64,000 bases of DNA from Candidatus Saccharimonadales bacterium. Its GTDB lineage: Bacteria; Patescibacteriota; Saccharimonadia; Saccharimonadales; UBA10212. Location: positions 331,242 to 395,241 of the forward strand of contig DASTXL010000001.1 in assembly GCA_035758565.1 (NCBI GenBank), read 5' to 3'. Positions 2,985 through 61,155 of the stretch are shown here, piece after piece. The notes beneath the pieces are model-generated. The model was not told the origin of the DNA. It worked only from the letters and a program-made list of their open reading frames with translations, and made no database searches. The position numbers were made by a program, and so were the translations under genes. The first letter of the stretch is position 1. Each line of letters starts with the position of its first letter.

Positions 2985-5270
2985 ATGCCTAAGAACCTAG
3001 TAATAGTAGAAAGTCCAGCTAAAGCCAAAACCATCGCCCGTTTTTTGGGCAGCGATTACGAAATAAAAAGCAGCTTTGGCCACATCCGCGACCTCCCTAA
3101 AAAGGGAATCGGTGTTGATATTGATAAAAATTTTGAGCCTACTTATGAGGTTAGTCCAGATAAAAAGAAAGTTGTTAGCGAATTAAAAAAAGCGGCTCAC
3201 GGCGCAACTGTTTGGCTGGCCAGCGATGAAGACCGCGAAGGTGAAGCCATTGCTTGGCATATTGCCGAACTTCTAGGCTTAGACCCCGCAAAAACCAAAC
3301 GAATTGTTTTTCACGAGATCACCAAGCCAGCGATTACGGCAGCTATTGAAAAGCCGCGCACTATCGACATGAAGTTGGTTGACGCCCAGCAGGCCAGGCG
3401 AGTATTGGACCGCCTGGTGGGCTACGAGCTCAGCCCAGTTTTATGGAAAAAGGTCCGAACTGGCTTATCCGCCGGCCGAGTACAAAGTGTAGCTGTGCGC
3501 CTAATCGTGGAACGGGAACGTGAGATTCGTGATTTTAAGCCGGAAAGCAGCTACAAAATTTCGGCAACTTTTAACGTCGACGGCCAAGAATTACCAGCCG
3601 AGCTGCCTGATAAATTAGATGGTTACGACACAGCCAAAAAATTCTTAGAAGATTTGCTGGGTGCCAAGTTTAGCGTTGAGCGTATTGAACAGAAACCGGG
3701 GCTACGCAATCCCGGCGCGCCATTTACTACCAGTACCTTACAGCAAGAAGCTGCCCGCAGGCTGGGTTATAGCGTGCGCCAGACTATGAGCCTGGCCCAG
3801 CGTTTGTACGAGGCTGGCCACATCACCTATATGCGCACCGATAGCACTATTTTGTCAGGCTTGGCCATAAACGCAGCCAAAGAGTACATCACCCGCGAAT
3901 ACGGTGAAAAGTATTCTAAAGTAAGACAATTCAAGACCAAGAATCAGTCCGCTCAAGAAGCCCACGAGGCTATTCGCCCAACAGATTTGACCAAACCGAG
4001 CCGCGGAGCCGACGCCCAGCAAAAGAAATTGTATGAACTTATTTGGCGGCGCACATTATCAAGCCAGATGGCAGCCGCCAACGTCCAAAAGACTGAGATT
4101 ACCATCAATATAAGCACTCGCAAAGAGAAACTTTTAGCCACTGGCGAGATTGTAAGTTTTGAAGGATTTTTGAAGGTTTATGGCGGCGGCAAAGAAGATA
4201 AACTACTGCCAGCCGTAACAGAGGGCCAAAGTTTGGCACTTAAAAGCGCCAGTGGTGTCGAGACTTTCAGCCGCCCGGCCGCCCGCTATTCCGAGGCCAG
4301 CCTCGTTAAAAAGCTAGAAGCGCTCGGTATTGGCCGCCCAAGCACCTATGCCCCCACAATCAGTGCCATTCAAGACCGTGGCTACATAGAAAAGGCTGAT
4401 TTAGAGGGCGAGGATAGGACTATTCAGGAAATTACGCTAAATAGCGGCAAGATTGAAGAAAAAACCGAGACAGTGAAAGTTGGCGCCGACCGCAGCAAGC
4501 TATTGCCAACCCACTTAGCCGAAGTAGTGACCGACTTTTTAATGAAGTATTTTGGCAATATTGTTGATTATGATTTTACCGCCCGCGCCGAAGAAGAATT
4601 CGATACTATTGCTGAGGGCAAGCGCCAATGGCAAGAAGCTTTAAAAGATTTTTACACTCAATTCCATCCATTGGTTGAAAAATCGGAAGGGGCTAGTCGG
4701 GCCGAAGCCAGCCAGGCCCGCAAACTTGGAACAGATCCAAAAACCAAACTGCCGGTGGTAGTTCGTTTTGGCCGCTACGGCCCGGTGCTCCAGCTTGGCG
4801 ACAGCGAAGACGAAGACCAAAAGCTCCGTTTCGCACCATTGCCTAACGGGGTGCGTATGGAAGACATCACCCTAGAACAAGCATTGCCAATGTTTCAATT
4901 GCCACGCGAAGTTGGCAAAACAGAGCAAGGAGAAGTGATTATTACTGATATTGGCCGCTTTGGACCATATCTAAAAGTTGGAAGTAAGTTCACGAGCATC
5001 AAGGGTCACGATCCTTTTTCGGTAACAGAAAAAGAAGCCCGCCAGATCTTATCCGAACAAGAAAAGAAGGCCAGAGAACGAACCATCGCTGACTTTGGTG
5101 TCATAAAGATATTGCGCGGCCCATACGGCCCATACGTAAGTGACGGCAAAAAGAATGCCCGCATACCAAAAGATACTGACGCCGAAAAGCTTAGCGAAGC
5201 CGAAGCCAAAAATTTACTGGATAAAGCGCCCGATAAACCTAGGTTTCGTCGCCGTAGCAAAAAAGCATAA
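2985..5270 (+). CDS. topA: DNA topoisomerase I
   Basis: 761 aa. N-terminal Toprim (LVIVESPAKAKTI), ITYMRTDS active-site Tyr region, C-terminal GRFGPY/RGPYGPY repeats and a basic tail. No Cys4 zinc fingers. Confidence 0.95.
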   Translation: MPKNLVIVESPAKAKTIARFLGSDYEIKSSFGHIRDLPKKGIGVDIDKNFEPTYEVSPDKKKVVSELKKAAHGATVWLASDEDREGEAIAWHIAELLGLDPAKTKRIVFHEITKPAITAAIEKPRTIDMKLVDAQQARRVLDRLVGYELSPVLWKKVRTGLSAGRVQSVAVRLIVEREREIRDFKPESSYKISATFNVDGQELPAELPDKLDGYDTAKKFLEDLLGAKFSVERIEQKPGLRNPGAPFTTSTLQQEAARRLGYSVRQTMSLAQRLYEAGHITYMRTDSTILSGLAINAAKEYITREYGEKYSKVRQFKTKNQSAQEAHEAIRPTDLTKPSRGADAQQKKLYELIWRRTLSSQMAAANVQKTEITINISTRKEKLLATGEIVSFEGFLKVYGGGKEDKLLPAVTEGQSLALKSASGVETFSRPAARYSEASLVKKLEALGIGRPSTYAPTISAIQDRGYIEKADLEGEDRTIQEITLNSGKIEEKTETVKVGADRSKLLPTHLAEVVTDFLMKYFGNIVDYDFTARAEEEFDTIAEGKRQWQEALKDFYTQFHPLVEKSEGASRAEASQARKLGTDPKTKLPVVVRFGRYGPVLQLGDSEDEDQKLRFAPLPNGVRMEDITLEQALPMFQLPREVGKTEQGEVIITDIGRFGPYLKVGSKFTSIKGHDPFSVTEKEARQILSEQEKKARERTIADFGVIKILRGPYGPYVSDGKKNARIPKDTDAEKLSEAEAKNLLDKAPDKPRFRRRSKKA

Positions 5271-5336
5271 GAAAACTAGGACTTTTTTAGGCAAAAAGGT
5301 CTAATTTGTGATACAATAAACATATCAATAAAGTGT

Positions 5337-5365
5337 TTGACTTTTGAAAATTAAGGTTTTATAAT
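5337..5365 (+). promoter_or_regulatory. sigma70-like promoter TTGACT-17 nt-TATAAT
   Basis: TTGACT 5337..5342, 17-nt spacer, TATAAT 5360..5365. AAGGAG SD further downstream, before the ATG at 5409. Confidence 0.5.
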
Positions 5366-5408
5366 TAAGAAAACTTCGAGTTCGCTAAGGAGTTATTTTA
5401 AAATTTTT

Positions 5409-6440
5409 ATGGAAGAAAATTCAACGCAATTTAATCTGGAATCAACGGTCCAAGACATCCTTGGCACTATTGAGCGTGAGCGGGAAAGAGAGATCATTGC
5501 CCGCCGCTTTGGCTTGTTTGACCGCCGTGAAACTCTGGAACAGATTGGCGAGCTCCTAGGTATTACTCGCGAGCGCGTCCGCCAACTGGAGAAGGCGGTG
5601 ATTACCAAGTTGAAGGCTTCAGCGCAAAACGATCTACCACACATCAAAGAAGTTGAAACCCTTCTTAGCGACCACTTGGGCCAAATGGGTAAAGTTGCCC
5701 GAATTAGCGACATCACTGCTAAGCTGACACCAGAAGCCAACAAAATAGATCAGGCCCGCGTGGCCTTCTTAGCTAGCCTAGCCCCAGGCATTGCGGTCAT
5801 AGAGGACAACGACCACTTCTTCCACTCTATTGGGCTGGCCGCGGAGCACACCGAAAAGGCTATCCGTGATCAGGTTAACAAAATCATCGAAGCCATCAAT
5901 GGCATTGGCGAACCGACCGAAATTGAAAAGGTTGCCGACAAAGTAGGGAGCAGCGATCCGAGACACGTTGAGGCTCTAGCCAGTGTATCCAAGAACATCG
6001 CCAGCCTACACGGCCGCTGGGGCCTAACTAAATGGCCAATGGTAAATCCAAAGAATATCCGCGATAAGATTTACGTTATCTTGCACGATAACAAGAAGCC
6101 TATGCACTTTAGCGAGATTGCCAAGGCTATTCAATCTAGCGACTTAAAGCGCAAAGATGTGACGACCCAAGCTATTCACAACGAACTAATTAAAGATGGT
6201 CGTTTCGTCTTGATCGGCCGCGGAATTTACGCCCTCAAGGAATGGGGCTACAAAAAGGGCACCGTATCCGACGTAATTGCCGAAATCTTGAGAAAAGAAG
6301 GCGGCCCATTACACCGCGACGAAATTGTTAAGCGCGTACTAAAAAGTCGTCACGTTAAAGAAACAACTATTCTTTTGAACTTGCAGGGCAAACCCCAGTT
6401 TAAGCGGGTAGCTAAAGCCACCTACACGCTGGCCGACTAG
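5409..6440 (+). CDS. sigma-70 region-4-like HTH protein with C-terminal HARE-HTH-like domains
   Basis: ARRFGL...ETLEQIGELLGITRERVRQLEKAVITKLK matches sigma70 region 4. Two C-terminal winged-helix-like modules (MHFSEIAKAI...GRGIYALKEWGY; PLHRDEIVKRVL...KATYTL). No sigma region 2. Confidence 0.55.
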   Translation: MEENSTQFNLESTVQDILGTIEREREREIIARRFGLFDRRETLEQIGELLGITRERVRQLEKAVITKLKASAQNDLPHIKEVETLLSDHLGQMGKVARISDITAKLTPEANKIDQARVAFLASLAPGIAVIEDNDHFFHSIGLAAEHTEKAIRDQVNKIIEAINGIGEPTEIEKVADKVGSSDPRHVEALASVSKNIASLHGRWGLTKWPMVNPKNIRDKIYVILHDNKKPMHFSEIAKAIQSSDLKRKDVTTQAIHNELIKDGRFVLIGRGIYALKEWGYKKGTVSDVIAEILRKEGGPLHRDEIVKRVLKSRHVKETTILLNLQGKPQFKRVAKATYTLAD

Positions 6441-6474
6441 TTGGCGCCACGCTCCACTTTTAGCTAGGCTAAAA

Positions 6475-9132
6475 GTGTATAATAAAACAGTAGTCATGAT
6501 ATTAGGTGGAAGAAACAAAATAGCTCAGTCCCACCAGCATTGCTTATTGATGCTGGAGGTGCCGCGAACTAACGACAAAAAGGAGTTGGCCGCCGAGCAA
6601 ATGCTAGCGGCGCTGCACGGAATTTTGCGCTCCAAAAAGGAGCTTAGGCTGTCTGGCACGCTTCAGGAACACATTAGTCTGGAAGTTGCCGCCATTGGCC
6701 AGCGAATTCGTTTTTATATTTGGACTCCTAAGCACTTGCAAGCCTTCGTAGAGGGTCAGATTTATGCCCAGTATCCAACTGTGCAGATCTTTGAGCAGCA
6801 AGAAGATTATGCCGAACGCCGGCTTCACCAAACGGTCATCCACACTAGCGAGCTAAGCTTAGTTGATGCCGAAACTATACCTATCAAGACCTTCCCAAGC
6901 TTTGAAGTTGACCCGTTAGCCGCTATCACCGCCACTTTGGCCAAGCTTGATCGTGAAGATGAAGAAATGTGGATTCAAATCATGGCCCGGCCCATCCACG
7001 ATGATTGGCACCGCAAAGGAGCAAAAGACGTTGCCCGCATCAAGCGCGGCAGCGGTATCTTAGGCGGAGCAGGGGGCTCTATGCTCGGCTATGCCGGTGA
7101 AGCGCTAGCCGCTTTAGTTCGCCCACCAACTGGTAGCGGAGAGAGTAAGGCGCCTGAAATTTCTGAACGCGACAAAGGTCGCATCACCGCCATAGAAGAG
7201 AAGAGTAAAAAGCTAGGCTACGAAGTTAAAATTCGCTTGCTCTATGCGGGCCACGACCAACACACCGCCAAACTCCGCATGCAGGCTCTGGTGGGTGCTT
7301 TTAAGCAGTTTAATAGCACTAATCTCAACGGTTTTGCCGCTAAAAACCCCAGTTTCAGCCGTGATAAGCAACTCGAATACCAAACCAGGTTTTTTATTAC
7401 CAAGGGCTTTATATTAAACATAGAAGAGCTGGCCAGCCTATTCCACCTGCCGCACACCTCGGTAGAAACTCCTAACATAGTTTGGGCAACCACTAAAACG
7501 GCTGAACCACCCAGTAATGTACCCATTGCCCAGCCGGGCATGGAAGACGAGATCAGTCTATTTGGCGTGACCAACTTCCGCGGTGATAATACTATTTTTG
7601 GCATCTTAAGGGCCGATCGCGGGCGGCACGTTTACATTCTGGGCCAGACAGGTACCGGTAAGTCCGGCGGCTTGGAGCTTTTAACTTTGTCTGACATTTA
7701 TTACGATCAAGGATTCGCTGTTATTGACCCGCACGGTGACTACGCCCAACATATTTTGCGCTTTATACCAGAACGCCGGCTCGACGACGTAATTTACTTT
7801 AATCCGGCCGACACCGAGTTCCCGATTGGCTTCAATCCATTAGAAATCAGCGATCCATCGCTCAAAGGCCATATAAGCTCAGAATTGGTTGGCGTCCTAA
7901 AAAGACTGTTTGCCGATAGCTGGGGGCCGCGCCTGGAATATATCTTGCGTTATACTTTGCTAGCTCTGCTTGATTATCCGAACTCAACCATGCTCGACAT
8001 TACAAGAATGCTGACCGACAAGAAATTCAGAAAAGACGTGATTAGTTACATCGATGACCCAGTAGTTAAGAACTTCTGGGTAACCGAATTCGCCAGTTGG
8101 AATGATAAGTTCGCCGCCGAAGCCGTAGCCCCGGTCCTCAACAAGGTCGGCGCCTTTACGGCGAACCCAATGATCAGGAATATTATTGGCCAGCCAAAGA
8201 GCACCTTTAACATCCGAAAGATCATGGACGAGGGCAAGATTTTGGTAGTTAATCTTAGTCGCGGTTTGATGGGCGAAGATAACGCCGGTATTTTGGGTGC
8301 CATGATGGTCACCAAAATTCAGTTAGCCGCCATGGGTAGAGCTGACATGCACGAGCACGAACGCCGGCCATTTTACCTATATGTTGACGAGTTTCAGAAC
8401 TTTGCCACCGATTCATTTGCGGTTATCCTGTCCGAAGCCCGAAAGTACGGCCTAAACCTAACTGTAGCCAACCAGTACATTTCTCAGATGAGCGAGGCTG
8501 TACGCGATGCTGTATTTGGCAATGTGGGCACGATTGTGTCTTTTAGAATCAGTCCAGATGATGCACCGTTCTTGCAGAAGTATTTTGAGCCGCAGTTTGA
8601 AGCTGCTGATCTCATACAACAGCATTCCCGGTTCTTCGTGACGACTATGATGATAAACGGCGAAAAGGCGCCCGCGTTTTCGGCTAAGACCCTAAACTTG
8701 CCCCAGCCGCCAGAAGACGTAACTAAGCAAATTATCGAGCTGTCCAGGCAAAGATATTCTGGACGCCGCCAAGAAGTCGAGGAGGCTGTACGTGAGCGCG
8801 CCGGGCTTAATACAGCTCCGCTGTTGCCAGAAGTTCCCGCAGCCGGCGATAATCTAAGACCTAAAGCCCGGGCTCGCGTGATCGAGGCGTCTAAAGCCAG
8901 CCCCACACATCTGATAGGCAAAGCTGTTACTAATCTATTGGCAACTGGTGATGGTGGCTCAAAGCAAAACCAAGCCGAACAAGCGGGATCTACTACTACC
9001 GCTGAGGTCGCAAAAACATCTAAAAGGCGCAGAGGGCGCCGCGGCAAAGGCTCTAAAGCAAAAACCGCTGCGACCGCGCCCAAAGAGGCAACTCCCGCAG
9101 AAGTTACCGAAGAGACAGTTAAGCTCCGCTAG
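6475..9132 (+). CDS. FtsK/HerA-superfamily ATPase resembling TraG/TraD/VirD4 coupling proteins, with an unknown ~330-aa N-terminal domain and a K/R/A-rich tail
   Basis: Walker A ILGQTGTGKSG, Walker B FYLYVDEFQNF, SEARKYGLNLTVANQYISQ (TraG-D C-like). The start is uncertain: the track uses GTG at 6475, with ATG candidates at 6496 and 6550. Confidence 0.6.
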   Translation: MYNKTVVMILGGRNKIAQSHQHCLLMLEVPRTNDKKELAAEQMLAALHGILRSKKELRLSGTLQEHISLEVAAIGQRIRFYIWTPKHLQAFVEGQIYAQYPTVQIFEQQEDYAERRLHQTVIHTSELSLVDAETIPIKTFPSFEVDPLAAITATLAKLDREDEEMWIQIMARPIHDDWHRKGAKDVARIKRGSGILGGAGGSMLGYAGEALAALVRPPTGSGESKAPEISERDKGRITAIEEKSKKLGYEVKIRLLYAGHDQHTAKLRMQALVGAFKQFNSTNLNGFAAKNPSFSRDKQLEYQTRFFITKGFILNIEELASLFHLPHTSVETPNIVWATTKTAEPPSNVPIAQPGMEDEISLFGVTNFRGDNTIFGILRADRGRHVYILGQTGTGKSGGLELLTLSDIYYDQGFAVIDPHGDYAQHILRFIPERRLDDVIYFNPADTEFPIGFNPLEISDPSLKGHISSELVGVLKRLFADSWGPRLEYILRYTLLALLDYPNSTMLDITRMLTDKKFRKDVISYIDDPVVKNFWVTEFASWNDKFAAEAVAPVLNKVGAFTANPMIRNIIGQPKSTFNIRKIMDEGKILVVNLSRGLMGEDNAGILGAMMVTKIQLAAMGRADMHEHERRPFYLYVDEFQNFATDSFAVILSEARKYGLNLTVANQYISQMSEAVRDAVFGNVGTIVSFRISPDDAPFLQKYFEPQFEAADLIQQHSRFFVTTMMINGEKAPAFSAKTLNLPQPPEDVTKQIIELSRQRYSGRRQEVEEAVRERAGLNTAPLLPEVPAAGDNLRPKARARVIEASKASPTHLIGKAVTNLLATGDGGSKQNQAEQAGSTTTAEVAKTSKRRRGRRGKGSKAKTAATAPKEATPAEVTEETVKLR

Positions 9133-9331
9133 CTTATAAATACTAATCAAGTCAAAACAGAACATTTTGCGAACATACTAGATTGCACATATGGCAATCT
9201 AGTAAACAAGGCGCTGGGTCTGTGTCGACGTAGGGCAGCGAAAAACCATAAGCAATAAATAAATTTAAAAAGATTTCGAAAAATAGAGCGGCCGGAAGCA
9301 GTAGAGTAGCATAAAGTCAGAGATAAACAGA

Positions 9332-9359
9332 ATGTCGCACAATGTATATTTTGCGACTC
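9332..9359. other. dif-like 11-6-11 site (candidate Xer recombination site)
   Basis: ATGTCGCACAA-TGTATA-TTTTGCGACTC. Inverted arms GTCGCA/TGCGAC around a TGTATA centre, in a 616-bp AT-rich gap between convergent genes. Confidence 0.3.
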
Positions 9360-9748
9360 TATATATCTTATGTGGAGATGATGAACTATACCCCGAATAA
9401 CAGGGGTGTTTTTAATAAATGGCTAATAATTAGATTATTTACCGCTCTTTTATATAATCGTACCGCATTATATTTATACGTTGGTCTACAGACAAACCCG
9501 CCATCTATTATCGATAGTCATGTTGTGACCCTGGCCAAAGTTATCCACAGTAAGTACATTGTTTGACTTTTGTGTTATTTCGTATTGTTTTTATATATTT
9601 TCCCTTTTTCCCTGATTTATTGCTCTATTTGACTTTATGTGAAAAAGACAGCCTTGCTCCCCACCAGTCGATCATTAGCATTAAAGATGAGATTAAACAA
9701 AATACGAACACGAGAGAGAAGAGATAGTGATCATAATCACACTTTTAA

Positions 9749-10303
9749 CTATTTAGTGACTAGCTCGTGAAACGGCCGGCGCTTAGAGGTGGAAGTTAAC
9801 CTGAGCACCTCCCAACTCACCAACTCAATCCCCCGCCCCTTAGGAAATAGCTCTGACGCCAGCTCCAGCGACCGTGCATCAAAAGGAACACCGAGGCGAA
9901 CGCTAGCGTGCGGATAATAAAACATGGCATTGGAGCTGAGCCCAAAGCCGCCGCCCCTCAGGTGCGCCAGCAAACTGATGTGTTCGCGCCCTAACACCGA
10001 TGACATGGCCATGACTATGGCGCTGGTAATTTTATAGGGCCCGCCTGTTAAATTCGATAAATAACTTACGCGAACGTGCGCCTCGGGTTTGATCAAACGG
10101 TTAAGAGCCGGAGTTATGGCTCTTAGAATTTCTTCGTCGCTCATAGTCACGCTCGGATGTATGCCTTGCAGCAGAGTTACGTGCGGCGGGTCGTCTCTAT
10201 AAGGCGAAGCCGGCATTAATTGCCTGACGCGCTCTAAATCCCTGCTTGCTTGCTCGTCAAGATGCAGTATCACAGAAAATTCATCATGTTTTTGTATTTG
10301 CAT
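9749..10303 (-). CDS. 2H phosphoesterase family protein (2'-5' RNA ligase / cyclic phosphodiesterase-like)
   Basis: Two H-x-T/S-x motifs (PPHVTLL and PHASVRL) with the spacing typical of LigT/ThpR-like proteins. Confidence 0.7.
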   Translation of the reverse strand: MQIQKHDEFSVILHLDEQASRDLERVRQLMPASPYRDDPPHVTLLQGIHPSVTMSDEEILRAITPALNRLIKPEAHVRVSYLSNLTGGPYKITSAIVMAMSSVLGREHISLLAHLRGGGFGLSSNAMFYYPHASVRLGVPFDARSLELASELFPKGRGIELVSWEVLRLTSTSKRRPFHELVTK

Positions 10304-23152: not shown

Positions 23153-23166
23153 ACTAGCGGCTAAAG

Positions 23167-23246
23167 CCTTATGAGGACAAACCTACGGTTTTTCCTCATC
23201 GCGCCGGGCGCGGAATAAATCCGCCGCTCGGGCTGCTCTTTTTCCC
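23167..23246 (-). repeat. structured intergenic element, copy X of a 3-member family
   Basis: Shares the ordered blocks TGAGGA..ACC..CGG, a conserved-loop hairpin (GCGGA-ATAAA-TCCGC at 23210..23224) and CTCTTTTTCCC with copies at 54791..54877 and 61061..61155. Confidence 0.55.
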
Positions 23247-47891: not shown

Positions 47892-48108
47892 GCATATCCT
47901 CCTGAATTTAAGCCCAGTGTATCTTAAAAACAGCTTAGGGCGCAAATTTCTACAACTTGGATTCCATTATTTGGTAGGCGGCGTCTTTTTGAGGGTCCTG
48001 GCCGTACTTGCGGCTCCGCTTGCGCTTCGCCTTATGAGACACCGCTTCGCAGTTTCTCATCGCGCCGGCAAAATGGTTCACATTTTGTCGGGCTGCTCTT
48101 CCGGAGGG

Positions 48109-49332
48109 TCACAATTTGGATTCGACCACTTGGTAGGCGGCGTCTTTTTGAGGATCCTGGCCGTTTTTGATGTCATTATCGGAAATACTGACTGATTTAT
48201 CTGGAGTAATTCCCTGCTTGTTGATGTTCTTGCCGTTGGGCGTATACCAATGGGCTACAGTCACCTTAAGCTCCGAACCGTCTGACAGGCTAATGACCTG
48301 CTGAACACTGCCCTTGCCAAAGCTCTTTTCGCCAACCAGGGTTGCTGCGCCGTTATCATGCAAGGCTCCGGCTGTAATTTCGCTGGCGCTGGCGCTACCG
48401 CCATCAATCAGCACCACTGTTGGCAGACCTTTAAGCGGATTATTGCCGGTGGCTGTTTCGGTATCCATGACTGTACTGCCGCGGCGCTCGCTCACTACAG
48501 TTTTGCCTTGATCAAGCCAGAGGCTGGAAACATTTACCGCATCTGTTAAATAGCCGCCAGGATTGCCACGCAGATCAAGAATTACGCCCTTTACGCCCTT
48601 GGCCTTAAATTCATTAGCTGCTTTTTGAGCTAAACCGACTGTATCATCGGTGAACTGATTGATCTTCATATAGCCAATGTTGTCTTTATCTTCGTTCCAG
48701 GTAACACTTGGCACAGTAATTTTCTGTCGGGTAATTGTAACGTCAAAAGGATTGCCATTGCCGCGCACAATCGTCAACTTCACCTGGGTGCCTTCTTTGC
48801 CGCGAATCTTGGAAACAGCGGCGTCAACACTCATACCAGAAGTGCTTTGACCATTAATACCCGCGATTAGATCCTTAGGTTTTAAGCCGGCCTTTTCTGC
48901 CGGATAGCCGGAAATTGGTGAAACAACCTGGATATTACCGCTAGCATCCGAGCCTATCTCGGCACCAATACCGGTAATGCTGCCGGATAGTTGATCGTTG
49001 AAAGTTTTAGCGTCAGTCGGGTTAAAGTACTCTGTATAAGGATCGCCGGTGGCGGCCACCAGCCCTTGTTTGGCACCGTCTATGAGCTTGGTCGTGTCTA
49101 AATTGCCGTCAAAGTCTTTCTGCAACAGACTGTAGACTTGATCAACCGAAGAAAAGTTCAGTTGGTTATTAGCGCTGGCCGCTTTAACACTCAAGCCATT
49201 GAGGTGTATGTCGCCGCGGCCGACAGCCACGCCAGCAAAGAAGAATATTACTACTAGAGTCAACGTACTGATCATTCTTTTTAGCGACGATTTTTGTCTA
49301 TTGTGAGGCACATGGCCGGCAGAACTTTCCAA
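48109..49332 (-). CDS. S41 family C-terminal processing peptidase
   Basis: TM anchor, PDZ region, DLRGNPGGY, GGSASASE and GKGSVQ motifs. Confidence 0.9.
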   Translation of the reverse strand: MESSAGHVPHNRQKSSLKRMISTLTLVVIFFFAGVAVGRGDIHLNGLSVKAASANNQLNFSSVDQVYSLLQKDFDGNLDTTKLIDGAKQGLVAATGDPYTEYFNPTDAKTFNDQLSGSITGIGAEIGSDASGNIQVVSPISGYPAEKAGLKPKDLIAGINGQSTSGMSVDAAVSKIRGKEGTQVKLTIVRGNGNPFDVTITRQKITVPSVTWNEDKDNIGYMKINQFTDDTVGLAQKAANEFKAKGVKGVILDLRGNPGGYLTDAVNVSSLWLDQGKTVVSERRGSTVMDTETATGNNPLKGLPTVVLIDGGSASASEITAGALHDNGAATLVGEKSFGKGSVQQVISLSDGSELKVTVAHWYTPNGKNINKQGITPDKSVSISDNDIKNGQDPQKDAAYQVVESKL

Positions 49333-54779: not shown

Positions 54780-54790
54780 GGCGCCTCCGG

Positions 54791-54877
54791 CTTATGAGGA
54801 ACCCCGTACGGGTTCCTCGTCGCAACTTCCGAAGTAAATTCGGATTCGCCCGAAGGCGAATCGTTGTTACTTTTCCT
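54791..54877 (-). repeat. structured intergenic element, copy Z
   Basis: CTTATGAGGA..., perfect 9-bp hairpin GAGGAACCC/GGGTTCCTC, conserved-loop hairpin CCGAA-GTAAA-TTCGG (54829..54843), 8-bp hairpin GATTCGCC/GGCGAATC, TACTTTTCC. Confidence 0.55.
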
Positions 54878-54926
54878 GCAAAATTTAAAATGAATTTCTG
54901 TCATTATATAAGCGTTTCCAGATTAA

Positions 54927-59033: not shown

Positions 59034-59618
59034 GTGGATAGATTAATAAAGCACGTAAACCTCTGGGTAGTTATTTTGATAGCCGTGCTGGTTGGACAGT
59101 CTTTGGTGCTAGCCATTGTGGTGGACCGCCTTGACGCATTGTGGACGCAGGTTAATGAACCCGAACCAGGCAGAGAGATGACATTTGAGACTAGTCAAAT
59201 GATACATAACGCTGTTTCTGGGATTTATACGCGCCCTAGCGTGGATGCTCCCACCAACAGGCTCTACTTCCCTGATCTAAGGATATATCTGCCATATAAC
59301 GAACAGTCTAAACAAATAGTCTACGATTACATGCCAGCCTACAATAAAGTCCCGGGCGAAGTCACCTTAAACTCCAACACTACCGTAAATATAGTTCCTC
59401 TGTCTTTTAGCGACATCTCTTGCATGCAGGGGATGGTCGACGTAAGCATAAATAAGGCCCAGGGCAATCCTCAAGCTACCGTAAAGCTAGCCGATGGTCG
59501 TACGCTCTACATGAAAACTCACCCGGCAAAGGAAGATGTAGCTCACTGTAACGACGTCTGGGGAGACTTGGGGCCTACCCAGATGATGGACTTATTTAAG
59601 CAGGCTAGGTCTTACTAG
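59034..59618 (+). CDS. hypothetical membrane-anchored protein
   Basis: GTG start in the track, one N-terminal TM helix. No family recognised. Confidence 0.4.
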   Translation: MDRLIKHVNLWVVILIAVLVGQSLVLAIVVDRLDALWTQVNEPEPGREMTFETSQMIHNAVSGIYTRPSVDAPTNRLYFPDLRIYLPYNEQSKQIVYDYMPAYNKVPGEVTLNSNTTVNIVPLSFSDISCMQGMVDVSINKAQGNPQATVKLADGRTLYMKTHPAKEDVAHCNDVWGDLGPTQMMDLFKQARSY

Positions 59619-60426
59619 CAACTTTTTTAGCGGATTTGGGCTTGGCAGATTTCTTTTGCAGCGCTTCAACAGTAAGCATTGTTCGACTGCGAGCATAATC
59701 GCAAAATTCACAAGGTTTGGACGGGTCCATAACATTTTTGCCTACCTCTGGCATGTCGTCCGAGTCCAGGCATTCTTTCATTTTGAAAATTGTCTGCTCC
59801 ACCCAGCTGTCGTCGCCTTCATAGTCTAAGAGTTTGGTCTTGAACTCTAGTTTATCGCCGAATTTGTCGGCATCTAGCCGAGCATTGGTGTAAAGAAAAT
59901 AGCCGACATTTTTAACCTTAAAAGCATTGCTGCGCAGTAACCATTGGTAAACTTCGATTTGGCGTTTATAGCCAATTTGCCAACCAGCATCCAGACTTAC
60001 TTCACCGGCTTTGGCTGTGGCTTTATAATCAACTACTACTAGCTCGTCAGTTTCCAGATCAACCCAAATATCGTCAACACCGCCAGTAATCAATAAGTTG
60101 GTCGGCTCATGCAAAAAAGTTACTCCGCGGCGTAACGCATCGCGCCATTCATCCATTTTCTCGTGCTTAAATGGAACTAGCTTGAGGCCGTATGTTTCAC
60201 AAATCGGATGGGCGGTTTGTGTTTCCCGATGGACATCGAACTCTTTTTTATAAAGTTCGTCTATAGCGCTATTGATGCGAAAAGGAGGGCTGCTTGGCCG
60301 CTTAATTTTCAGCCGGGCGTCCAGCCAAAAACACCGCGGGCAATTCAAAAAAAGATCGATTTTGCTGCGGCTGACCCGGTAAGGCGCTGTTTGCCCCGGC
60401 TTATAAGGTAAAGATCTCTCTCTCAT
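59605..60426 (-). CDS. PD-(D/E)XK nuclease superfamily protein with Cas4/AddB-like Cys cluster
   Basis: GGVDD...VVVDYK (D...D/ExK) core. CPRC near the N-terminus and CEFC near the C-terminus (2+2 Cys). Confidence 0.65.
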   Translation of the reverse strand: MRERSLPYKPGQTAPYRVSRSKIDLFLNCPRCFWLDARLKIKRPSSPPFRINSAIDELYKKEFDVHRETQTAHPICETYGLKLVPFKHEKMDEWRDALRRGVTFLHEPTNLLITGGVDDIWVDLETDELVVVDYKATAKAGEVSLDAGWQIGYKRQIEVYQWLLRSNAFKVKNVGYFLYTNARLDADKFGDKLEFKTKLLDYEGDDSWVEQTIFKMKECLDSDDMPEVGKNVMDPSKPCEFCDYARSRTMLTVEALQKKSAKPKSAKKVASKT

Positions 60427-60596
60427 ATTTTTTCCCTTGCGAAGAGCAGCTCTGGCAAATATGGTGAACCATTTGCCGGCTCTGGTGAGAAACCCAGAAT
60501 GGGTGTCTCATAAGGCGTTAGCTGCCTATAAGGTTGGCTTCGTTCGTACCCCATTACTAATAGTTTAACAGGCTTATGCAAATATATGCGGCCATT

Positions 60597-60640
60597 AAAA
60601 ATACCGAGCTCTTTTTAGGCTCGGTATTTTGTTTGTTTTA
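60597..60640. terminator. bidirectional intrinsic terminator
   Basis: AAAAATACCGAGC-loop-GCTCGGTATTTTGTTTGTTTT, 20 nt downstream of the 60651..60968 gene. Confidence 0.6.
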
Positions 60641-60650
60641 TATATGGATA

Positions 60651-60968
60651 TTAGCGGCGGCCGCTTGGAGTCCAGCGGGCAGCCAGGCTAACCAAAAGAT
60701 AGCCAGCAGCTACGTAGACTGCCATAGCGAACAGGGCTACCCAGTCGACATACCAGTTGCCTGGAGTGTGAGTTGGGTTTGGGAATACACCGCGGAAAGG
60801 CGCCAAAAGCGTATCCGTTGTGCTAAACGCCCAATGAACGAACCCGCCACCAGCGTTGGTGAAGAAAAACTTCAAGACAACGCGGAGCAAGAGCAAAAGC
60901 TCTGTTAAACCGACAAACAAGTTAACCAAATGGCCAACAGCCTGCCTGTTTGCTTTGTAGAGATCCAT
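60651..60968 (-). CDS. YggT-like small membrane protein
   Basis: 105 aa, two TM helices, LLRVVLKFF...LLAPFR pattern. AAGGAGG SD. Confidence 0.45.
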   Translation of the reverse strand: MDLYKANRQAVGHLVNLFVGLTELLLLLRVVLKFFFTNAGGGFVHWAFSTTDTLLAPFRGVFPNPTHTPGNWYVDWVALFAMAVYVAAGYLLVSLAARWTPSGRR

Positions 60969-61060
60969 ATGTCCTCCTTAGTTAATAAGCTCATCATATG
61001 CCCGCTTCAGCAAATTTTCAAGTTAGATTTCTAACAAAAGCGCACTTATACACAACTCCT

Positions 61061-61155
61061 CCTGAGGACAAACCTAGCGGTATTCCCTTAACGCGCCTTC
61101 TGGAGTAAATCCAGATTCGGCTTTTATGAGCCGAATCGGCGCTACTCTTTTTCCC
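61061..61155 (-). repeat. structured intergenic element, copy Y
   Basis: CCTGAGGACAAACCTAGCGGT..., conserved-loop hairpin CTGGA-GTAAA-TCCAG (61100..61114), 9-bp hairpin GATTCGGCT/AGCCGAATC, CTCTTTTTCCC. Confidence 0.55.

Follow-up and report, generated by a model that had tools for sequence, protein, structure and literature searches.

What are the look-alike clusters of hairpins that recur between the genes of a bacterium with a very small genome? The question is raised by a 64,000-nt stretch of DNA (hereafter, the window) from a Candidatus Saccharimonadales bacterium (assembly GCA_035758565.1, contig DASTXL010000001.1, positions 331,242 to 395,241), in which a preliminary description, made from the sequence alone, had reported three structured intergenic elements, here termed X, Y and Z. 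We find that these three clusters are real and that the description under-called them. The window copies probably represent a family of small, non-autonomous mobile elements. This reading rests on copies inserted in frame into protein genes, copies inserted into 23S rRNA genes, the occurrence of both orientations, duplications of the target, and near-identical copies at unrelated sites. The family is specific to Candidatus Saccharibacteria (Saccharimonadales) and, as far as literature and Rfam searching shows, undescribed.

Copies were identified first with an nhmmer profile and thereafter with a covariance model, R1 (76 positions, 23 pairs), which was run over all 64 kb of the window with filters off. 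X, Y and Z are present where they had been placed, and the supposed family of three grows to five in the window:

23157–23246, minus strand: copy X, three-stem subfamily (covariance model and sequence reading)
48011–48110, minus strand: fourth copy with its ends (the 48030 copy), between a 407-aa open reading frame (ORF) and a CTP-synthase-like ORF
54790–54878, minus strand: copy Z, four-stem subfamily, in the gap between secA and the M16 peptidase gene, 10 nt ahead of the M16 start
60438–60515, plus strand: fifth copy (the 60438 copy), with an altered P1 region (CTCTGG) (covariance model)
61055–61155, minus strand: copy Y, four-stem subfamily, 17 nt past the Zincin_1 stop and about 86–95 nt ahead of the YGGT start

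The model matches the 48030 copy over 48030–48104(−) with 83 bits (E 7e-25), X over 23167–23244(−) with 82 bits (E 1.5e-24), and the 60438 copy over 60438–60515(+) with 63 bits (E 1.5e-18). Matches to Z (54790–54878(−), 21 bits, E 6e-5) and Y (61055–61155(−), 14.8 bits, E 0.007) are weaker. An nhmmer profile of the four-stem variant gives Y an E-value of 1.7e-18 and Z one of 2.2e-16, and finds no further copies in the window. The loop-plus-stem pattern RRATTTAYTYC occurs 4 times in the window, compared to 0.69 expected, and the three stretches originally listed have fold z-scores of −2.8, −1.2 and −3.9.

How widely is the element distributed? We fetched 74 related loci (1.29 Mb; L numbers below denote loci) via the M16 peptidase downstream of Z, nearly all of them labelled Candidatus Saccharibacteria or Saccharimonadales. 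These contain just 13 convincing copies per 1.29 Mb, versus 5 in the 64-kb window, and most of the 13 are in loci with an M16 peptidase 75–83% identical to that of the window (the exceptions being L022, L048 and L063). Abundance of the element is lineage-specific. Four of the loci (L003, L006, L054, L074) carry the labels of Binatia, Babeliales, Parcubacteria and Myxococcales metagenome-assembled genomes. Their M16 peptidases are 46–79% identical to that of the window, the same range as in Saccharibacteria-labelled loci, and L006 bears the element; mis-binning of Saccharibacteria DNA is probably what lies behind these contigs. A strict pattern assembled from the conserved blocks matches at least 120 stretches in metagenome contigs and none in viral contigs, and a phage origin was rejected accordingly. 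Among the matches listed, to which all the metagenome counts refer, the covariance model accepts 110 at E ≤ 0.01 (about 100 of them full-length) and 48 at E ≤ 1e-4. In all, at least 161 copies were kept for analysis after removal of short or spurious matches. Neither orphan 3′ halves nor a larger parent element turned up besides the copies already counted, and a 5′-half pattern proved too loose, with 460 matches off the element. In one locus (L113), two copies of unlike subtype lie head to tail, 7 nt apart, at 757–829 and 837–912. The covariance search of related genomes and metagenomes proposed in the preliminary description has thus brought many further copies to light.

The core of the element is about 76 nt in length, or 85–110 nt with its variable ends. 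On the element strand, a variable segment of 5–24 nt precedes a purine block, (C)GGRAAGAGCAG, and conservation sets in abruptly at the GG of this block. Next comes P1, in which GCC is closed by GGC, and which encloses CGA plus one hairpin (three-stem) or two (four-stem). The linker GCGAU leads to P4, a hairpin of 12–13 bp (AUGAGAAA..UGUCUCAU) with the consensus GAGAAA(AA/CC)CC, loop, GG(UU/GG)UGUCUC and an invariant A.G mismatch. P4 is followed by AU and then by UACC, or by AAGG and a small GGC-GNRA-GCC hairpin, such that many copies have an AUAAGG tail with a GNRA-type hairpin. The blocks GAGCAGCC and GCGATGAGA are invariant, as are the unpaired nucleotides GAGCAG and GCGAU.

Reading of the window copies bears out the ordered blocks that had been described in the three minus-strand gaps. 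On that strand, X runs GGGAAAAAGAGCAGC, GCGGA-TTTAT-TCCGC, ATGAGGA..TCCTCAT and ATAAGG; Y runs GGGAAAAAGAGTAGC, GATTCGGCT/AGCCGAATC, (C)TGGA-TTTAC-TCCA(G), an imperfect GGGAATACC/GGTTTGTCC stem and AGGAGG; and Z runs AGGAAAAGTAAC, GATTCGCC/GGCGAATC, CCGAA-TTTAC-TTCGG, GAGGAACCC/GGGTTCCTC and GGAGG. The hairpin with the UUUAY loop has 4–5 bp and a different stem in each copy (GCGGA/UCCGC, UGGA/UCCA and CCGAA/UUCGG). The variable hairpin that had been called weak in X is missing from it altogether, X being a three-stem copy and Y and Z four-stem copies. The parts of the copies are as follows:

23234–23246, minus strand: X, 5′ purine block
23201–23233, minus strand: X, P1/P3 domain GCC-CGAGC-[GCGGA TTTAT TCCGC]-GCCCG-GC, followed by the conserved linker GCGAU
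23171–23199, minus strand: X, P4 hairpin AUGAGGAAAAACC GUA GGUUUGUCCUCAU, with the conserved A.G mismatch
23157–23170, minus strand: X, tail AUAAGG and small hairpin GGC-UUUA-GCC
48105–48110, minus strand: 48030 copy, variable 5′ segment GACCCT
48030–48104, minus strand: 48030 copy, core
48011–48029, minus strand: 48030 copy, 3′ region with small GNRA-type hairpin
54790–54878, minus strand: Z, outer stem CAAC/GTTG around GATTCGCC-TTCG-GGCGAATC and CCGAA-TTTAC-TTCGG; then GCG, P4 GAGGAACCC-GTACG-GGGTTCCTC, and ATAAGCCGGAGG
61055–61155, minus strand: Y, outer stem GCGCC/GGCGC around GATTCGGCT-CATAAA-AGCCGAATC and TGGA-TTTAC-TCCA; then GCG, a degraded P4 AAGGGAATACC-GCTA-GGTTTGTCCTC, and AGGAGG

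Two sequence subfamilies are evident across the family, one combining GGAAAAG with AAAAACC/GGUUU (n = 53) and the other CGGGAAG with AAACCCC/GGGGU (n = 39), while mixed copies, with the CGGGAAG block and the AAAAACC stem, number only 4. This linkage between the purine block and P4 (92 copies versus 4) could stem from shared descent or from a tertiary contact, such as base triples. A mirror repeat is also conserved family-wide, in which the ..AAGAG of the 5′ block faces the GAGAA.. of the 5′ strand of P4 (23234–23246 and 23171–23199 in X). For a possible extra helix, P0, in which the upstream flank would pair with the purine block, the duplex energy of −7.85 kcal/mol is just marginally better than the −7.05 kcal/mol obtained with distant flanks (p = 0.09).

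Is the fold itself under selection? The preliminary description had argued as much from compensatory changes among three copies, and the alignment of about 160 homologues lends strong support to the argument. In a set of 106 distinct sequences, 96.3% of cells at the 23 pairs can pair, with double changes at 20 of the 23. The covariation score is 0.370, compared to 0.107 in shuffled alignments (none of 500 reaches the observed score) and at most 0.068 with slid partners. For the four-stem variant, 90% of cells pair, double changes occur at 13 of 18 pairs, and again none of 500 shuffles reaches the score. The alignments were partly model-fitted, and hence these numbers lean towards structure; the slid controls and the raw sequences leave little doubt that the covarying fold is conserved. 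No Rfam 15 family matches the window at the gathering score, and a permissive scan (E up to 10) of X, the 48030 copy and a consensus-like copy from L006 returned only chance-level matches. With further copies in hand and covariation upheld, nothing that the preliminary description had named as grounds for dismissing or reassigning the element was found. Motifs of a hammerhead-like core (GAUGAG, GAAAC, GUC) are present, but judged by eye the stems come in the wrong order and U4 is missing, in agreement with the lack of an Rfam match, and we reject this identity.

The stems also tell on which strand the fold matters. Counted on the element strand, G-U pairs outnumber A-C combinations 64 to 27 overall and 12 to 6 in copies that are antisense to their host genes, and antisense copies pair nearly as well as sense copies (95.4% versus 96.7% of cells). 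This implies that the fold belongs to the element strand as such and has come down from source copies, rather than being upheld by each transcript of the host. A fold tied to one strand in this way suggests a single-stranded intermediate, either RNA or single-stranded DNA (ssDNA). These data bear directly on another explanation, that the repeats are duplex DNA sites for a host protein (gyrase or IHF, as in repetitive extragenic palindromic (REP) or BIME-like sequences) or DNA signals such as promoters, terminators or recombination sites. Repeats that are largely intergenic, occur in both orientations and contain palindromic stems would suit such a role, but stem sequences that vary freely with pairing kept point to a folded single strand, as does the excess of G-U over A-C on one strand, and copies lie within rRNA and coding genes. 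Nor is there a conserved promoter motif in or beside the element, or a U-tract terminator, and we consider a duplex site very improbable.

The promoter and terminator were also taken up as candidates in their own right and rejected. For a promoter in the element or at its 5′ edge, no upstream positional motif is seen, the promoter scanner is silent, and the best hexamers within the element (ATGAGA .. CATAAG) lack the conserved final T. As had been noted from the missing U-tract, the element is not a standard intrinsic terminator: no terminator call overlaps it in either orientation, P4 being followed by AAGG or UACC. An antisense copy does not serve as terminator either, by the same lack of a call. 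The real terminator past YGGT, which is of the canonical intrinsic type and bidirectional, is a separate hairpin at 60598–60630 (AAAATACCGAGC..GCTCGGTATTTT with a T-rich tail), just beyond the gene and distinct from the copy at 60438–60515.

Could the element instead regulate the genes next to it? The flanking genes, confirmed by Pfam, are aldo-keto reductase and GH1 (X), SecA and M16 peptidase (Z), and Zincin_1 and YGGT (Y). Measured from the end of its model match, X lies about 14 nt ahead of the GH1 start (23152), and for all three copies the distances to the next start agree with those given before. In a riboswitch or gene-specific translational regulator, an anti-Shine–Dalgarno (SD)-like UCCUC would pair alternately with GAGGA or with the SD of the GH1, M16 peptidase or YGGT gene downstream. 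The placement of X and Z, 10–14 nt ahead of a start, and the SD-like purines of the tail beside a CCUC-containing hairpin are what such a switch would show. The SD-like purines reported earlier are indeed present, but they belong to the conserved 3′ tail of the element and not to a regulated platform. Moreover, the stem is GAGA/UCUC or AAGA/UCUU in most members, rather than GAGGA/UCCUC, and no Rfam riboswitch matches. Recording of downstream genes across the family, as had been suggested, shows them to be unrelated to one another; in many cases no gene of like orientation follows the copy, and further copies lie in rRNA, tRNA leaders or coding sequences. These contexts effectively refute a riboswitch, to which we give almost no credence.

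Where, then, does the element go? Its copies are dispersed, and their presence at a given site is polymorphic. The secA–M16 gap is filled in the window, L001, L002, L006 and L101, with unlike subtypes, and empty in L003–5 and L008–16, in which the stop of secA directly adjoins the M16 start. Of the copies that lie between co-directional coding genes, 26 are sense and 20 antisense; within the window, the 60438 copy is antisense to both of its neighbours, a PD-(D/E)XK nuclease gene (59605–60426(−)) and YGGT (60651–60968(−)). Two protein genes contain the element in frame, namely those for a TRAM/U5-methyltransferase (L063 2181–2255) and an S4/FtsJ methyltransferase (L089 2022–2098). Homologues in other loci lack exactly the inserted 22–26 residues, and in both copies the reading frame yields G-R-A-A-R/Y from GGAAGAGCAGCC.

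By Rfam annotation, copies also lie within the 23S rRNA genes of nine loci (L078, L086, L112, L122, L139, L155, L163, L168 and L193), and others are found in the 23S–5S spacer and immediately upstream of the 23S 5′ end. Alignment of six 23S genes shows the same helices filled in some and empty in others, with insertion gaps corresponding to positions 543–667, 1143–1223, 1703–1770, 2207–2223 and 346–370 of E. coli rrlH. The first three gaps we take, by E. coli numbering, to be helices 25, 45 and 63. Helices 25 and 45 are the classical sites of intervening sequences (IVSs), and all three are places of eukaryotic expansion segments. In L086, the 23S gene (3078–6922) is 3.8 kb long and contains, besides the element, a long insertion that appears to be protein-coding; several of its helices have A/T-rich expansions of CATTGACCATTT-like short repeats.

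Some of this copying is recent. Thirty pairs of copies are at least 97% identical and have unrelated flanks. In one metagenome, identical copies precede tRNA-Lys and tRNA-Met, and a single 23S gene has 97%-identical copies in helices 45 and 63. Direct repeats of at least 14 nt flank the element in 13 of 99 copies, versus none in a control using more distant flanks. On refinement, the flanking duplications vary from 13 to 59 nt, three of them measuring 42–43 nt with 0–1 mismatch. The longest surrounds the 48030 copy, and sequence comparison places its two halves as follows:

48111–48169, minus strand: upstream copy of the 59-nt duplication (R), encoding GQDPQKDAAYQVVESKL*
47952–48010, minus strand: downstream copy (R′), encoding GQDPQKDAAYQIMESKL*, 48/59 identical to R

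R spans the final 17 codons of the 407-aa ORF plus the T of the TGA that ends it, the GA lying in the 6-nt segment 48105–48110. Past this TGA, in 47952–48110(−), the frame is open through the element and its tail hairpin (PSGRAARQNVNHFAGAMRNCEAVSHKAKRKRSRKY), continues into the 17 duplicated C-terminal codons, and ends at a second stop. The differences between R and R′ are mostly synonymous or conservative (D/D, VV/IM, K/K, TGA/TAG).

The edges of the duplications fall at particular places. On the 5′ side of the element, the edge falls on or inside the stop codon of a gene on the same strand (the window, L105, L134); in other cases, it coincides exactly with the ATG of a gene on the opposite strand (L149, L154, L098), and there the reverse complement of the pyrimidine-rich 5′ segment provides GGAG at SD distance. 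These junctions may reflect survivorship, with only those insertions persisting that leave the gene expressible. A tendency of the duplication-plus-element unit to preserve the reading frame was considered and rejected, with 6 of 14 in frame, no different from chance. For X, Y, Z and the 60438 copy, no target duplication rises above shuffled controls. Given this, and the 49–78% identity of the window copies to one another, these four insertions are probably old. Insertions at 3466–3542 in L099 and 1842–1917 in L105 are orthologous, following one gene. The 42-nt duplicates of L105 show no difference; those of L099 disagree at about 14 of 54 positions, of which about 12 are third codon positions, and it is the downstream one that resembles the L105 version. 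This suggests that element-bearing segments have been exchanged between lineages by homologous recombination.

The distribution around RNA genes is less even. No tRNA genes occur in the window, but elsewhere 27 copies lie in sense orientation 2–13 nt upstream of the mature 5′ end of a tRNA, compared to about 4 antisense copies upstream. Sense copies are also present in the leaders of rpsL, rpsJ, rplK, rpsM, tuf, dnaK and secY. In these mRNA and tRNA leaders a sigma-70-like promoter, where found (none for tuf and dnaK), lies 12–75 nt upstream of the element, which places the element within the transcribed leader. Some copies lie 1–8 nt from the 3′ end of a tRNA gene on the opposite strand (L144 3241–3316, L075 3399–3473, L143 9215–9293), and in L144 a 16-nt stretch from the 3′ end of tRNA-Ser (TGGCGGAAGGGGCGGG) occurs twice, once on either side of the element. 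A four-stem copy at L141 6523–6615 occupies the site of Y, about 97 nt upstream of a YGGT homologue; the two may represent one inherited insertion or independent ones. Y and this copy differ by compensatory changes, as do two copies upstream of tRNA-Lys, in L079 and L104.

It is also possible that the element is primarily a cis-acting RNA module of the host, a leader or spacer element that directs the processing of, or stabilises, transcripts of stable RNAs and highly expressed genes by recruiting an RNase or RNA-binding protein, or by cleaving itself, and that has spread because it is useful. The 27 copies just upstream of same-strand tRNA genes would be accounted for in this way, as would those at the 23S 5′ end, in the 23S–5S spacer and at sites of the helix 25/45 type, where IVSs are excised elsewhere in bacteria. 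The sense copies in leaders, most with good sigma-70-like promoters upstream, the invariant unpaired GAGCAG and GCGAU, the GNRA-type tail hairpin and the compensatory differences between copies at orthologous sites are likewise in line with such a role. Against it, the roughly 20 antisense copies between co-directional genes fold as well as the others, and some copies are translated as insertions in proteins. In related genomes, most tRNA genes and most of the orthologous gaps are without the element; target duplications, together with copies that are nearly identical at unrelated sites, speak of insertion rather than conservation; and known ribozyme and leader families give no match, even with E allowed up to 10. 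On balance, we regard a primarily host-functional module as unlikely.

The mobile repeat remains our favoured explanation. Of the options that the preliminary description had offered (a cis-regulatory or processing RNA, a protein-binding site, or a mobile element resembling REPs or MITEs (miniature transposable elements with inverted repeats)), only the last fits all of the data, and a gene-specific cis-regulator finds no support. On the evidence above, elements enter new sites and leave behind long, variable direct duplications of the target (13–59 bp). They persist only where they do little harm: between genes, in the leaders and spacers of pre-tRNA and pre-rRNA, at the tips of variable 23S helices, and rarely in loops of proteins, in frame. 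The fold would be kept since what is recognised during copying is the element's own strand in single-stranded form, as RNA or ssDNA. X, Y, Z and the 60438 copy would then be old insertions, passively co-transcribed with their neighbours, and the host may have co-opted some of the sense copies in leaders of highly expressed genes.

Several points weigh against the mobile reading. A partner gene, be it for a transposase, a reverse transcriptase or another enzyme, was not found; the only test was a weak one, in which tblastn with an approximate group II intron reverse transcriptase sequence gave no match in partial genomes totalling 2.1 Mb. Neither excision nor insertion has been observed directly in a population. 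Pure selfishness does not predict the strong sense bias at tRNA genes or the sense copies in leaders, and the compensatory differences at orthologous sites could mean that the fold is selected in place. Finally, we know of no transposition chemistry that fits duplications of 13–59 bp without terminal inverted repeats; the two ends of the element (the variable segment plus GGRAAGAGCAGCC at the 5′ end, GGUKUGUCUCAU plus 4–6 nt at the 3′ end) are not reverse complements. As for the sense bias, possible sources are counter-selection of antisense copies in essential, highly transcribed units, an insertion bias linked to transcription, and co-option.

How does the element compare with known systems? 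The closest in behaviour, by description, are the Rickettsia palindromic elements (RPEs), attributed to Ogata et al. 2000, which are said to be small structured non-coding repeats inserted between genes, into RNA genes and, in frame, into protein genes. Both hallmark locations, a protein gene read in frame and a structural RNA gene, are represented among our copies, and the likeness extends to a reduced genome, tolerance of the insertion as an extra peptide, the absence of a transposase of its own, and the absence of terminal inverted repeats. We claim no descent from RPEs, which belong to Alphaproteobacteria rather than to Saccharibacteria of the candidate phyla radiation (CPR), and which measure about 100–150 nt, compared to about 76–110 nt here. 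The element is also no simple palindrome, its three or four stems forming an asymmetric array that comes with invariant blocks outside the pairing, and it differs in its long target duplications and its sense bias at tRNA genes. Bacterial MITEs (Correia/NEMIS, ERIC/IRU, RUP, BOX) are similarly non-autonomous and dispersed, at about 100–150 bp; they are co-transcribed, form RNA hairpins, occur in either orientation and can supply SD-like or other expression signals. However, MITEs have terminal inverted repeats and duplications of about 2–10 bp that match a parent insertion sequence, whereas the element has neither, its duplications being 13–59 bp, and no parent insertion sequence is known for it. 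REPs and REPINs, which are associated with RAYT, and palindromes derived from IS200/IS605 resemble the element in being short hairpins recognised as single strands, with a strand-specific fold and no terminal inverted repeats. Yet REPs are single hairpins of 20–40 nt, strictly extragenic, often in inverted pairs and without target duplication, while the element has a 76-nt core with three or four stems, enters genes and makes long duplications; no RAYT/TnpA gene turned up, although no dedicated search was made. Lacking the features of MITEs (terminal inverted repeats; short, fixed duplications) and those of REPs (size, stems, extragenic location), the element is placed in no named family.

The rRNA insertions deserve separate comparison. 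The 23S IVSs are likewise short, without an ORF and not group I or II introns, and the element shares their location in helices 25 and 45 (gaps 543–667 and 1143–1223) in addition to other variable helices. Classical IVSs, on the other hand, are restricted to rRNA, from which RNase III cuts them at a long end stem, while most copies of the element lie outside rRNA. Tsurumaki et al. 2024 reported that 64 of 66 Saccharibacteria rRNA insertions are ≤250 bp, uncharacterised, not introns and without a homing endonuclease, and that many short CPR rRNA insertions are at known IVS sites (PMC11270868). The element could plausibly account for many of those short insertions.

In several respects the element resembles the eukaryotic short interspersed nuclear elements (SINEs), which are also small, structured and non-coding, with duplications of variable length (here 13–59 bp), a conserved 3′ part, a variable 5′ flank, subfamilies with near-identical dispersed copies and an association with tRNA genes. 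It differs in having no A-tail, and no 5′-truncated copies were seen. To our knowledge, no SINE-type element has been described in bacteria. A bolder proposal would make this the first small structured bacterial element to move via a single-stranded, probably RNA, intermediate, in the manner of SINEs or template switching. Highly transcribed stable-RNA genes would attract or retain it, it would lie behind most of the unexplained short rRNA insertions of Saccharibacteria, and its RNA might be cut out of, or act as a processing signal in, pre-tRNA and pre-rRNA. In this full form the proposal is a long shot, and we put it forward tentatively.

Apart from the element, one other feature of the window may be recorded. 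Between the convergent ORFs 6475–9132(+) and 9749–10303(−) lie about 600 nt of AT-rich DNA (9133–9748), with no ORF of 80 aa or more and no Rfam match.

Saccharibacteria and other CPR bacteria have very small genomes and are usually thought to be poor in selfish DNA. Despite this small genome size, a single family supplies about 5 copies per 64 kb here. Full-text literature searches found no description of the element. The combination of no terminal inverted repeats, a strand-specific fold and duplications of 13–59 bp edged at start or stop codons does not fit known prokaryotic transposition chemistries. The near-exclusive sense placement upstream of tRNA genes points to co-option in RNA processing or to an insertion bias linked to transcription. 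The element also links three things so far handled apart: intergenic structured motifs, the uncharacterised rRNA insertions of Saccharibacteria (PMC11270868), and extra peptide segments in conserved enzymes. In practical terms, the covariance model provides a simple flag for annotation, since copies otherwise resemble novel non-coding RNAs, riboswitch candidates, rRNA expansion segments or protein indels.

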